Below the pieces are notes generated by a model. The model did not search any database and had not been told where the DNA came from. It was given only the letters and a program-made list of their open reading frames with translations. Below are positions 27,668 to 30,875 of a stretch of 64,000 bases of DNA, piece after piece. The stretch lies in the NCBI GenBank assembly GCA_000146045.2, contig BK006945.2, positions 704,001 to 768,000 of the forward strand. The letters run 5' to 3'. Position 1 is the stretch's first letter; each line of letters opens with the position of its first letter. This DNA is from TPA_inf: Saccharomyces (taxonomy: Eukaryota). The translations under genes and the position numbers were made by a program.

Positions 27668-28000
27668 TGAAAATTTGGTGAATTTTGAGATAATTGTTGG
27701 GATTCCATTTTTAATAAGGCAATAATATTAGGTATGTAGAATATACTAGAAGTTCTCCTCGAGGATTTAGGAATCCATAAAAGGGAATCTGCAATTCTAC
27801 ACAATTCTATAAATATTATTATCATCGTTTTATATGTTAATATTCATTGATCCTATTACATTATCAATCCTTGCGTTTCAGCTTCCACTAATTTAGATGA
27901 CTATTTCTCATCATTTGCGTCATCTTCTAACACCGTATATGATAATATACTAGTAACGTAAATACTAGTTAGTAGATGATAGTTGATTTTTATTCCAACA
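27668..28000 (-). mobile_element. Solo Ty1/Ty2 delta LTR (about 333 bp)
   Basis: On the minus strand it reads TGTTGGAATAAAAATCAACTATCATCTACTAACTAGTATTTACGTTACTAGTATATTATCATATACGGTGTTAGAAGATGACGCAAATGATGAGAAATAGTCATCTAAATTAGTGGAAGCTGAAACGCAAGGATTGATAATGTAATAGGATCAATGAATATTAACATATAAAACGATGATAATAATATTTATAGAATTGTGTAGAATTGCAGATTCCCTTTTATGGATTCC...CCCAACAATTATCTCA. This is a near-canonical delta ending 89 bp upstream of a tRNA gene. Confidence 0.9.
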
Positions 28001-28089
28001 CTAAGAAATAATTTCGCCATTTCTTGAATGTATTTAAAGATATTTAATGCTATAATAGACATTTAAATCCAATTCTTCCAACATACAAT

Positions 28090-28190
28090 GGGAGTTTGGC
28101 CGAGTGGTTTAAGGCGTCAGATTTAGGTGGATTTAACCTCTAAAATCTCTGATATCTTCGGATGCAAGGGTTCGAATCCCTTAGCTCTCA
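28090..28190 (+). tRNA. tL(UAG)L1: tRNA-Leu(UAG) with a 19-nt intron
   Basis: GGGAGTTTGGCCGAGTGGTTTAAGGCGTCAGATTTAGG[tggatttaacctctaaaat]CTCTGATATCTTCGGATGCAAGGGTTCGAATCCCTTAGCTCTCA. A box (TGGCCGAGTGG) and B box (GGTTCGAATCC) are present, with the intron 3' of the anticodon. Confidence 0.95.
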
Positions 28191-28199
28191 TTATTTTTT
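28191..28199 (+). terminator. Pol III T-tract terminator (ttatttttt)
   Basis: A T6 run immediately 3' of the tRNA-Leu. Confidence 0.6.
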
Positions 28200-28568
28200 G
28201 CTTTTTCTCTTGAGGTCACATGATCGCAAAATGGCAAATGGCACGTGAAGCTGTCGATATTGGGGAACTGTGGTGGTTGGCAAATGACTAATTAAGTTAG
28301 TCAAGGCGCCATCCTCATGAAAACTGTGTAACATAATAACCGAAGTGTCGAAAAGGTGGCACCTTGTCCAATTGAACACGCTCGATGAAAAAAATAAGAT
28401 ATATATAAGGTTAAGTAAAGCGTCTGTTAGAAAGGAAGTTTTTCCTTTTTCTTGCTCTCTTGTCTTTTCATCTACTATTTCCTTCGTGTAATACAGGGTC
28501 GTCAGATACATAGATACAATTCTATTACCCCCATCCATACAATGCCATCTCATTTCGATACTGTTCAA
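28191..28568 (-). CDS. YLR302C: Dubious ORF covering the MET17 promoter and 5' end
   Basis: 125-aa ORF abutting the tRNA and overlapping MET17 regulatory sites and its start. Probably non-coding. Confidence 0.2.
28242..28247. promoter_or_regulatory. Cbf1 E-box CACGTG (gCACGTGaag) in the MET17 promoter; a variant CACATGA sits at 28216-28222
   Basis: Canonical TCACGTG-type CDE1 element about 295 bp upstream of the MET17 ATG. Cbf1-Met4-Met28 regulation of MET17/MET25 is established knowledge. Confidence 0.7.
28266..28273 (+). promoter_or_regulatory. Met31/Met32 site AACTGTGG; a second AAACTGTG lies at 28321-28328
   Basis: Core CTGTGG motifs flank the Cbf1 site, the classic MET25/MET17 promoter arrangement. 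Confidence 0.65.
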
Positions 28569-29876
28569 CTACACGCCGGCCAAGAGAACCCTGGTGACAA
28601 TGCTCACAGATCCAGAGCTGTACCAATTTACGCCACCACTTCTTATGTTTTCGAAAACTCTAAGCATGGTTCGCAATTGTTTGGTCTAGAAGTTCCAGGT
28701 TACGTCTATTCCCGTTTCCAAAACCCAACCAGTAATGTTTTGGAAGAAAGAATTGCTGCTTTAGAAGGTGGTGCTGCTGCTTTGGCTGTTTCCTCCGGTC
28801 AAGCCGCTCAAACCCTTGCCATCCAAGGTTTGGCACACACTGGTGACAACATCGTTTCCACTTCTTACTTATACGGTGGTACTTATAACCAGTTCAAAAT
28901 CTCGTTCAAAAGATTTGGTATCGAGGCTAGATTTGTTGAAGGTGACAATCCAGAAGAATTCGAAAAGGTCTTTGATGAAAGAACCAAGGCTGTTTATTTG
29001 GAAACCATTGGTAATCCAAAGTACAATGTTCCGGATTTTGAAAAAATTGTTGCAATTGCTCACAAACACGGTATTCCAGTTGTCGTTGACAACACATTTG
29101 GTGCCGGTGGTTACTTCTGTCAGCCAATTAAATACGGTGCTGATATTGTAACACATTCTGCTACCAAATGGATTGGTGGTCATGGTACTACTATCGGTGG
29201 TATTATTGTTGACTCTGGTAAGTTCCCATGGAAGGACTACCCAGAAAAGTTCCCTCAATTCTCTCAACCTGCCGAAGGATATCACGGTACTATCTACAAT
29301 GAAGCCTACGGTAACTTGGCATACATCGTTCATGTTAGAACTGAACTATTAAGAGATTTGGGTCCATTGATGAACCCATTTGCCTCTTTCTTGCTACTAC
29401 AAGGTGTTGAAACATTATCTTTGAGAGCTGAAAGACACGGTGAAAATGCATTGAAGTTAGCCAAATGGTTAGAACAATCCCCATACGTATCTTGGGTTTC
29501 ATACCCTGGTTTAGCATCTCATTCTCATCATGAAAATGCTAAGAAGTATCTATCTAACGGTTTCGGTGGTGTCTTATCTTTCGGTGTAAAAGACTTACCA
29601 AATGCCGACAAGGAAACTGACCCATTCAAACTTTCTGGTGCTCAAGTTGTTGACAATTTAAAGCTTGCCTCTAACTTGGCCAATGTTGGTGATGCCAAGA
29701 CCTTAGTCATTGCTCCATACTTCACTACCCACAAACAATTAAATGACAAAGAAAAGTTGGCATCTGGTGTTACCAAGGACTTAATTCGTGTCTCTGTTGG
29801 TATCGAATTTATTGATGACATTATTGCAGACTTCCAGCAATCTTTTGAAACTGTTTTCGCTGGCCAAAAACCATGA
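28542..29876 (+). CDS. MET17: O-acetylhomoserine/O-acetylserine sulfhydrylase (PLP-dependent)
   Basis: 444 aa from the ATG at 28542 ([27 protein letters not shown]...). The track ORF starts 30 codons upstream; that extension is rejected. PLP-binding lysine context [10 protein letters not shown]. Confidence 0.96.
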
Positions 29877-30389
29877 GTGTGCGTAATGAGTTGTAAAATT
29901 ATGTATAAACCTACTTTCTCTCACAAGTACTATACTTTTATAAAACGAACTTTATTGAAATGAATATCCTTTTTTTCCCTTGTTACATGTCGTGACTCGT
30001 ACTTTGAACCTAAATTGTTCTAACATCAAAGAACAGTGTTAATTCGCAGTCGAGAAGAAAAATATGGTGAACAAGACTCATCTACTTCATGAGACTACTT
30101 TACGCCTCCTATAAAGCTGTCACACTGGATAAATTTATTGTAGGACCAAGTTACAAAAGAGGATGATGGAGGTTTCTTTACAATAAAGAAGCACATGTGT
30201 GTTAACGTTTTTAGTATTTGCTTGTTATGTAAATCAGGAAAACTTCGCGGGATTTGGTTGGATGCTACTTTCCATACAATAAATATTATAGATCTAAAAA
30301 GCCAAATTACAAGTAAAGATTAGTAAAGCTGTTGGAATTCCATCGTTGATAAAAATGTTAGTTATTAAATATAAAAGTCAGAATAGGTG

Positions 30390-30675
30390 AACTTGGATTT
30401 AATTGTTGGCATTTCGTTGCTGCTAGAGGCCATAATATTAGATAGCCAGGACATACTAGTTCTCCTCGTGGTATAGGAATCCATAAAATGGAATTGGTGA
30501 TTCTATGTGATATATTCACATTCTTACTACATTATCAATCCTTGCACTTCAGCTTCCTCTAACCTCGATGACATCTTCTCATAACTTATGTCATCATCTA
30601 ACGCCGTCTATTATAATATATTGATAGTATAAGTATTAGTTGATAGACAATAGTGGATTTTTATTCCAACAGTGT
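30390..30675 (-). mobile_element. Diverged solo delta LTR (Ty1/Ty2 family)
   Basis: On the minus strand it reads TGTTGGAATAAAAATCCACTATTGTCTATCAACTAATAC...GGAAGCTGAAGTGCAAGGATTGATAATGTAGTAAGAATGTGAATATAT...TTTTATGGATTCCTATACCACGAGGAGAACTAGTATG...CAACAATTAAATCCAAG. Substituted throughout relative to the 27668-28000 copy, so older. Extra short LTR-like fragments sit at 30330-30390 and 30676-30800. Confidence 0.75.
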
Positions 30676-30801
30676 CTTTGTTCGTCTCAGATATAGTCGG
30701 ATTGCCCTTTTAAGCAATCAATAGTGTTTTATTTGCAACAATGTCGTCATAGTTTAATATGTCCTATAAGATGTTAACTTGCTCAACATTCAACAAAGTT
30801 T

Positions 30802-30875
30802 GGTCTCTTGGCCCAGTTGGTTAAGGCACCGTGCTAATAACGCGGGGATCAGCGGTTCGATCCCGCTAGAGACCA
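30802..30875 (+). tRNA. tI(AAU)L1: tRNA-Ile(AAU)
   Basis: GGTCTCTTGGCCCAGTTGGTTAAGGCACCGTGCTAATAACGCGGGGATCAGCGGTTCGATCCCGCTAGAGACCA; anticodon AAT in the loop CTAATAA. Confidence 0.95.

Follow-up and report, generated by a model that had tools for sequence, protein, structure and literature searches.

This study concerns a 64,000-nucleotide stretch of Saccharomyces cerevisiae DNA (the window, from whose first letter all coordinates are counted) in which the gene MET17 lies between two transfer RNA (tRNA) genes and two solo long terminal repeats (LTRs) of Ty retrotransposons. The order of its features, ECM38, EXG1, HRI1, delta A, tRNA-Leu(UAG), MET17, a delta fragment, delta B, tRNA-Ile(AAU), ACO1 and STT4, is diagnostic of the species, and the segment is of the S288C type; an S288C-type assembly of the same locus (L043) differs from it by 1 base in 22,337. 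MET17 itself, coding for O-acetylhomoserine sulfhydrylase, occupies 28542-29876 on the plus strand and is identified by its Pfam domain (Cys_Met_Meta_PP, E 9.9e-141) and by homologues that carry its name. An earlier note on this DNA, made from the sequence, had placed the gene between two RNA polymerase III (Pol III) genes and two LTRs, with which these coordinates agree.

The two tRNA genes

A search of the whole 64 kb with Rfam gives exactly two RNA genes, both of them tRNAs on the plus strand. tRNA-Leu(UAG) (28090-28190; RF00005, 49.8 bits) contains a 19-nt intron 3' of the anticodon (28128-28146), as found by Rfam and by ARAGORN with introns allowed, and is followed by a T6 Pol III terminator. 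Owing to this intron the gene is missed by ARAGORN in its default (bacterial) mode and was recovered by Rfam and by the run that allows introns. tRNA-Ile(AAU) (30802-30875; 58 bits with Rfam, also called by ARAGORN) is followed by a T-rich Pol III terminator and is 74 nt long without an intron: the match to the Rfam model is uninterrupted and ARAGORN with introns allowed reports none. The description of both Pol III genes as intron-containing in the earlier note is therefore right for tRNA-Leu and wrong for tRNA-Ile.

LTR-like sequence was sought over the same 64 kb with a full Ty2 and a comparison library assembled from other strains' alleles of the locus, and the scan returned delta A and delta B only. 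With these two LTRs and these two tRNA genes as the only ones present, the only LTRs of the window adjoin its only tRNA genes.

A young Ty2-type delta upstream of tRNA-Leu

Delta A is a 333-bp solo LTR of the Ty2 type on the minus strand (27668-28000; TGTTGG...TTTTCA in the sense of the LTR). Its TG..CA ends are intact, and it stands between the two copies of a perfect 5-bp target-site duplication, CTAAG, which can be read from the sequence at 27663-27667 on the left and at 28001-28005 on the right. Its identity is 96-98% with either LTR of a 5959-bp Ty2 from another assembly (L013), an element whose 438-aa Gag clusters with Transposon Ty2-C and Ty2-OR2, and 82% with a Ty1 LTR. tRNA-Leu starts 89 nt past the end of delta A, within the 1-kb upstream rule for such insertions (PMC5911963). 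Among the haplotypes, only a few of the S288C type have delta A (the window, L043 and L048), and most of the 33 other S. cerevisiae assemblies that we compared have an exact empty site in its place, with a single CTAAG (or CCAAG); it is a young, polymorphic insertion.

Old LTR sequence upstream of tRNA-Ile

Delta B (30378-30671, minus strand), past whose end tRNA-Ile starts after 130 nt, is a degenerate solo LTR of 294 bp that is closer to the Ty1 type, with 82% identity to the LTR of a 5918-bp Ty1-like element present in another strain and 76% to the Ty2 LTR and to delta A. Its alignments to Ty1 and Ty2 LTRs cover 292-294 nt (76-82% identity, E 1e-34 to 1e-61). Delta B carries an internal deletion of ~34-38 nt, and its 5' TG is intact while its 3' terminus is mutated, reading ...TCTGA for ...TCTCA. 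No presence/absence polymorphism was seen, delta B being present in 33/33 other assemblies; it is full length at no less than 95% identity in 30 of these, and in the other three it is truncated (by the end of the locus), diverged or chimeric.

To the left of delta B lies a short, U5-proximal fragment of an older delta (30330-30366, minus strand), recognized by blast, by comparison with shuffled sequences and by a counterpart in S. paradoxus. The segment ~30330-30353 matches positions 287-311 of a Ty1-type delta (blast E 3e-4; z = 7-8 vs shuffles), and the fragment probably extends to ~30305. The spacer between delta B and tRNA-Ile (30672-30801) is not LTR-like by the tests run: against delta, sigma and tau LTRs it gave Smith-Waterman z scores of at most 1.7 vs shuffles and no blast match at word size 7, the LTRs of Ty5 and Ty3p lying outside this comparison. 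The same spacer holds target sites that have been used in other strains, by Ty1 at 30693-97 and by Ty3 at 30788-92.

Most of what the earlier note had read from the letters of these two LTRs agrees with this picture. The near-canonical 333-bp delta that it placed 89 bp upstream of tRNA-Leu was found just there, the much diverged delta that it placed about 127 bp upstream of tRNA-Ile was found at 130 nt, both LTRs are antisense to their tRNAs as it stated (minus-strand LTRs beside plus-strand genes), and both can be aligned at full length to LTRs of intact Ty elements. The extra LTR debris that it reported has to be divided, the fragment at ~30330-30353 being upheld by the statistics given above and the stretch 30676-30800 finding no support in them.

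Recurrent Ty insertions in other strains

For comparison, 33 other S. cerevisiae assemblies yielded the corresponding locus through exact-protein look-ups with Met17, two Met17 variants, Aco1, Hri1 and Exg1; these loci were aligned to the window, and events were counted as independent only by a distinct target duplication, orientation or element type. On this count the sample contains at least 20 independent insertions of Ty1, Ty2, Ty3 (sigma) and Ty4 (tau), all of them 10-845 bp upstream of the two tRNA genes and each with its own 5-bp duplication. Over ~20 kb, all structural variants larger than 50 bp lie within 27576-28079 or 29958-30792 and none lies elsewhere. Among them are solo deltas of either orientation, one complete Ty1, complete Ty2s, and the LTRs of Ty4 (tau) and Ty3 (sigma).

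In the zone upstream of tRNA-Leu, where the junctions were read base by base, the target 27576-80 (GTTTT) holds a plus-strand delta in L011 and a minus-strand delta with a nested delta in L062. Minus-strand tau LTRs are found at 27647-51 (TTATA) in L040 and L047, the one in L040 with a nested delta fragment, plus-strand deltas at 27653-57 (AAGAA, L019) and 27654-58 (AGAAA, L017), and a minus-strand sigma at 28075-79 (CTTCC, L012), 11-15 nt from the tRNA. Upstream of tRNA-Ile there are deltas at 29958-62 (AAATG, L013), 30473-77 (ATAGG, L011) and 30515-19 (TTCAC, L027), an old-type delta at ~30362-66 (AAATA, L044), a full 5918-bp Ty1-like element at 30693-97 (ATAGT, L039) and, at 30788-92 (ATTCA), a sigma interrupted by a Ty2-type LTR remnant in L056, which is truncated in L047. 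The L044 delta had been taken by megablast for a tandem duplication of delta B; this was rejected, since the locus proved to hold a single additional delta of the old type, flanked by an AAATA duplication of its own.

A cluster of targets only 11 bp long lies inside delta B itself (30611-30621, 181-191 nt upstream of tRNA-Ile) and was used independently in four other strains, by minus-strand deltas at ~30611-15 (GATAA, L062) and 30616-20 (ATATA, L015) and, at 30617-21 (TATAT), by a plus-strand Ty4 tau in L012 and a plus-strand full Ty2 in L013. The same five bases are thus reused at TATAT by Ty4 and Ty2, and at GTTTT in both orientations. Over both zones the distances seen were 85-101, 105, 172, 181-191, 283, 325-336, 436 and 840 nt, to which are added the sigma LTRs, 10-15 nt from the 5' end of each tRNA; the tau LTRs stand ~100 and ~180 nt upstream.

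One target, 30462-66 (CTCCT), is occupied by a Ty2 in L039 and by a solo delta in L019, with a common right junction in which CCAACA is followed by CTCCT. The Gag of this Ty2 is 99% identical to Ty2 Gag, and the left end of the element is beyond the retrieved sequence. A Ty2 and a solo LTR at the same junction show solo-LTR formation directly and support the supposition of the earlier note that the insertions were resolved by LTR-LTR recombination. The 5918-bp element of L039, in turn, has a Ty1-like Gag, a search with a fragment of which gave few partial matches, named YNL284C-B-like and YDR034C-D-like; its assignment to Ty1 rests on these matches together with its length, its LTR termini and what is known of Ty1 Gag.

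Some of the loci have structures of another kind. L020 (1-9459, the same as L010 and L046; GCA_016858165.1, CM029100.1, an S288c assembly according to a preprint) contains, upstream of MET17, an inverted second copy of 27895-30354 that includes an intact MET17 open reading frame (ORF) with one mismatch to the window. From this copy, LTR sequence leads to a complete Ty2 that itself lies nested in a Ty fragment (5-bp overlap, LTR positions 102-106), a variant delta at the delta A site follows the nested Ty2, and the direct copy is ~0.35% different from the window. The structure may be a genuine Ty-associated inverted duplication or an assembly chimera, and its left side was never recovered via look-ups with ACO1, HRI1 and EXG1. 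In L019 (8406-9457; L009 3406-4437) five tandem copies of the first ~143 nt of the delta at 27653-57 stand in front of it; they are either a real array of LTR fragments or a long-read assembly artefact. In the phased assembly L036 (8376-8644) the tRNA-Leu region is full of small insertions and substitutions between clean flanks; it might be taken for a novel allele but is probably local assembly noise, so many are its small errors.

Other Saccharomyces species

In S. paradoxus and in two strains of S. kudriavzevii the two tRNA genes are syntenic and have the same sequence (100% identity). The region upstream of tRNA-Leu is empty in S. paradoxus, and upstream of tRNA-Ile the same species has a partial U5 fragment (longer than that of S. 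cerevisiae), an alignable spacer of ~20 nt and a delta in the same orientation, all collinear with the fragment and delta B of S. cerevisiae. In S. kudriavzevii a 169-nt remnant of a delta lies at the place corresponding to delta B, and one of the strains, but not the other, has a delta upstream of tRNA-Leu. Judged from these sequence arrangements, delta B is probably orthologous with the S. paradoxus delta and predates the split of the two species. Between the S. paradoxus delta and tRNA-Ile lies a spacer (L025, 8077-8217) unrelated to that of S. cerevisiae, which contains the motif TTCGAACCC, reminiscent of a fragment of a tRNA T-arm.

Recombination between LTRs around MET17

As direct repeats, delta A and delta B stand 2,671 bp from one another. 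They are 76-78% identical over 293 nt, and the longest exact block that they have in common is the 18-nt sequence TACATTATCAATCCTTGC. Efficient recombination between dispersed Ty and LTR sequences needs ~250 bp of uninterrupted identity and is ~50-fold lower already at 91-94% identity, and solo LTRs are unfavourable substrates (PMC2996329). Divergence of this degree makes deletion between delta A and delta B a rare event and not a liability of the locus. The loss of tRNA-Leu and MET17 (2,671 bp) by this route is possible in principle, should be rare, and would be confined to the haplotype with delta A, a minority one. In a small sample of 20 haplotype places that were retrieved via ACO1 or EXG1, and so without selection on MET17, no MET17-deleted allele was seen: MET17 is in place in 19, and in the twentieth (L039), where two Tys take up the flank past ACO1, it is not visible. 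A literature search for LTR-mediated deletion of MET15 returned nothing specific.

A natural recombinant is found in L047, where delta B is a chimera whose left part is delta B and whose right part is a Ty2-type LTR, the switch falling inside the same 18-nt block. In this locus (reverse complement, 9220-9594) 30546-30783 and most of the sigma element are deleted, the deletion spanning from delta B to a Ty2-type LTR inserted earlier in the sigma. L056 (15500-16032) has the sigma undeleted and interrupted by an odd LTR remnant, in which positions 1-148 in forward orientation are joined to 61-1 in reverse. The L047 chimera shows that homeologous LTR-LTR deletion has occurred at the locus, and the 18-nt block, common to old and young LTRs, may be a preferred crossover point for deletions of this kind. 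The proneness to LTR-mediated deletion that the earlier note ascribes to the MET17 interval is thus sound as to mechanism but overstated as to frequency, given the identity of the pair, the shortness of the exact block and the want of a deleted allele in the places retrieved.

Other features of the window

By product, the neighbouring genes code for a gamma-glutamyltranspeptidase (ECM38-like), a GH5 glucanase (EXG1-like), HRI1 and a phosphatidylinositol 4-kinase; the aconitase gene is on the strand opposite to MET17. Upstream of MET17, elements of the CACGTG type occur at ~28218 (tcacatgatc) and ~28243 (gcacgtgaag), ~25-55 nt past the end of tRNA-Leu (in 28191-28260). The commonly used MET25/MET17 promoter fragment presumably starts within the 3' half of the tRNA-Leu gene, and a literature search linking tRNA gene-mediated (tgm) silencing with the MET17, MET15 or MET25 promoter gave no paper with the tgm term. 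The 90%-identity cluster of S. kudriavzevii Met17 (P0016) also lists many HRI1 proteins, probably a clustering artefact and perhaps the result of a fused gene model.

Further along, ORFs at 41620-42525 and 43931-44875 (301 and 314 aa) stand in tandem with a spacing of 2,347 bp and have 71-74% nucleotide identity over ~400 nt (repeat families D1 and D3). The ORF at 41620-42525 matches a polysaccharide deacetylase gene in the strain loci, and the two are presumably the tandem paralogue pair CDA1/CDA2.

Discussion

The integrase complexes of Ty1, Ty2 and Ty4 are drawn to Pol III genes and insert into positioned nucleosomes within ~1 kb upstream, and Ty3 inserts at the Pol III start site. Delta solo LTRs of Ty1 and Ty2 upstream of tRNA genes follow from such targeting, through Pol III subunits and the upstream nucleosomes. 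We hold with great confidence that the region described here consists of two actively targeted Pol III genes whose upstream zones take Ty integrations, and that delta A and delta B with its fragment are relics of these. Published work puts the targets of Ty1-4 in a ~1-kb stretch lying upstream of Pol III genes, with Ty3 1-4 bp from the transcription start (PMC5911963), and gives for Ty1 insertion an ~80 bp periodicity and a dependence on active Pol III transcription (PMC3545840). By eye, the distances observed here look compatible with this picture of an upstream window and ~80 bp steps, and we infer that targeting by Pol III and nucleosomes acts at this locus.

On this account the upstream regions of tRNA-Leu(UAG) and tRNA-Ile(AAU) are integration zones for yeast LTR retrotransposons, in which full elements would later have been reduced to solo LTRs by recombination between their own two LTRs. 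Delta A is a young Ty2-type insertion 85-89 nt upstream of tRNA-Leu that has kept its CTAAG. Delta B, ancient and Ty1-like, lies 130 nt upstream of tRNA-Ile and, like the fragment of an even older LTR beside it, is probably older than the divergence from S. paradoxus. MET17 is merely the gene that happens to sit between the two tRNA genes. The hotspot for Ty insertion that the earlier note proposed is amply borne out by the further Ty1-Ty4 insertions confined to the two upstream zones, and its minimum of two to three independent integrations of differing age is in keeping with the identities to living LTRs, 96-98% for delta A and 76-82% for delta B. The target-site duplications and strain polymorphism that it named as signs of such insertions are both present for delta A, with its CTAAG and its exact empty sites, and both lacking for delta B. 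The hotspot reading withstands the refutation that the note itself had set for it.

Several observations weigh against the account just given. Some of the strains are related, and events counted as independent could share ancestry; some of the assemblies (L036, L019, L020) are drafts from long reads and contain local errors. Delta B has no target duplication, its flanks AAAAG and GTGTC being different, and its origin as a simple insertion would have to be taken from its similarity to other LTRs; the mismatch of its end and flanks fits with age, or with two different elements having recombined, and we file it as a degenerate relic. The orthology of delta B, finally, rests on the fragment-plus-delta arrangement that the species have in common, and its 130-nt flank on the tRNA side cannot be aligned between them.

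This last point bears on an alternative in which delta B and the relics in S. paradoxus and S. kudriavzevii arose by separate insertions at one favoured distance, delta B then being younger than the split. The reuse of the same few bases at this very locus (TATAT by Ty4 and Ty2, GTTTT in both orientations) lends it some weight, as do the unalignable flank and the identity of only ~75% between delta B and the S. paradoxus delta. Set against these are the composite of U5 fragment, ~20-nt alignable spacer and same-orientation delta that both species have, the fixation of delta B in all the S. cerevisiae assemblies at 18-24% divergence from all living LTR types, and the extent to which the two deltas differ, which seems in line with the divergence of unconstrained intergenic sequence between the species. 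We regard independent insertion as unlikely, though deserving of consideration, and retain the older, orthologous origin of delta B as the probable one. A more sweeping objection, that the association of LTRs with tRNA genes is a coincidence or that the strain polymorphism is an artefact of assembling repeats, could draw on the garbled tRNA-Leu of L036, the five partial LTR copies of L019 and the chimeric-looking inverted duplication of L020, all of them suggestive of long-read noise. It is scarcely credible beside junctions that are exact to the base, each with a duplication of its own and, in other strains, a corresponding empty site in single copy, and beside alleles that recur in independent assemblies (the tau of L040 and L047, the sigma of L056 and L047, delta A in the window, L043 and L048); nor would it account for the freedom of the rest of the ~20 kb from structural variants, or for the occurrence of the only two LTRs in 64 kb within 130 nt of the only two tRNAs.

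It could also be argued that the interval between delta A and delta B is a cassette that often recombines, deleting tRNA-Leu and MET17, with consequences for the stability of the marker. The two LTRs do have the same orientation at a distance of 2,671 bp, sequences of these two types have recombined in nature (the L047 chimera of delta B and a Ty2-type LTR, with its crossover in TACATTATCAATCCTTGC), and L011 and L019 carry around MET17 pairs of LTRs that are 96-98% identical and mutually inverted, which could invert the interval. We think such frequent loss very doubtful: delta A and delta B fall far from the ~250 bp of identity needed, even the ~50-fold drop at 91-94% applies to closer pairs than theirs, solo LTRs are unfavourable substrates (PMC2996329), MET17 is retained in 19 of the 20 places of the small sample, L039 being the one in which it is not visible, and delta A is missing from most strains, so that the direct repeats are specific to the S288C type. 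Two targeted Pol III genes with LTR relics upstream thus remain our reading of the locus. Where MET17/MET15 serves as a marker in S288C-type strains, diverged direct LTR repeats and a tRNA gene stand right around it, and its spontaneous LTR-mediated loss should be rare.

As a hotspot the pattern is textbook Ty behaviour and already known, with nothing that departs from known Ty biology. The targeting of Ty1-Ty4, the formation of solo LTRs and strain polymorphism are well established, the reference region is heavily studied, and the analysis adds little beyond confirmation; its use is rather as a compact example from nature in which four Ty families reuse a hotspot and LTRs have once recombined homeologously. 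A tentative suggestion, to which we give only limited credence, is that delta B holds a site-specific super-hotspot, 30611-30621 having been used at least four times by Ty2-type elements and Ty4, and that the 18-nt block is favoured for crossover. If the precision of insertion at 30611-30621 exceeds what phased nucleosomes predict, the old LTR or its positioned nucleosome would direct new insertions to itself.

The nearest known systems are close ones. The classical Ty1 hotspot at SUF16 (tRNA-Gly), as cited in PMC5911963, is likewise a region upstream of a tRNA gene that gathers many independent Ty insertions; as cited there, it was defined by assays of de novo insertion, whereas here the hotspot is read from natural polymorphism and may be no hotter than an average tRNA gene. 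In common with the dispersed Ty and LTR recombination of PMC2996329, the locus has direct LTR repeats flanking a unique segment and, in one strain, a natural LTR x LTR recombinant with a deletion, but the pair of delta A and delta B is well below the identity thresholds for efficient recombination in that system. The Ty3 sigma and Ty4 tau LTRs of other strains stand at the distances from tRNA genes expected for their families, neither of which is represented in the window, where 30676-30800 matches neither. Compared with the Ty1/Ty2 delta solo LTRs (Pseudoviridae) known at tRNA genes, delta B is a degenerate member at 294 bp, with its internal deletion, mutated 3' end and lack of a duplication. 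The locus as a whole resembles the places where such LTRs are found, in lying less than 1 kb from a Pol III gene, in the occurrence of either orientation, in strain polymorphism, and in the presence of a full element and a solo LTR at one site, and delta A, with the same size (333 bp), TG..CA ends, a 5-bp duplication and 96-98% identity to the Ty2 LTR, shows no material difference from them.

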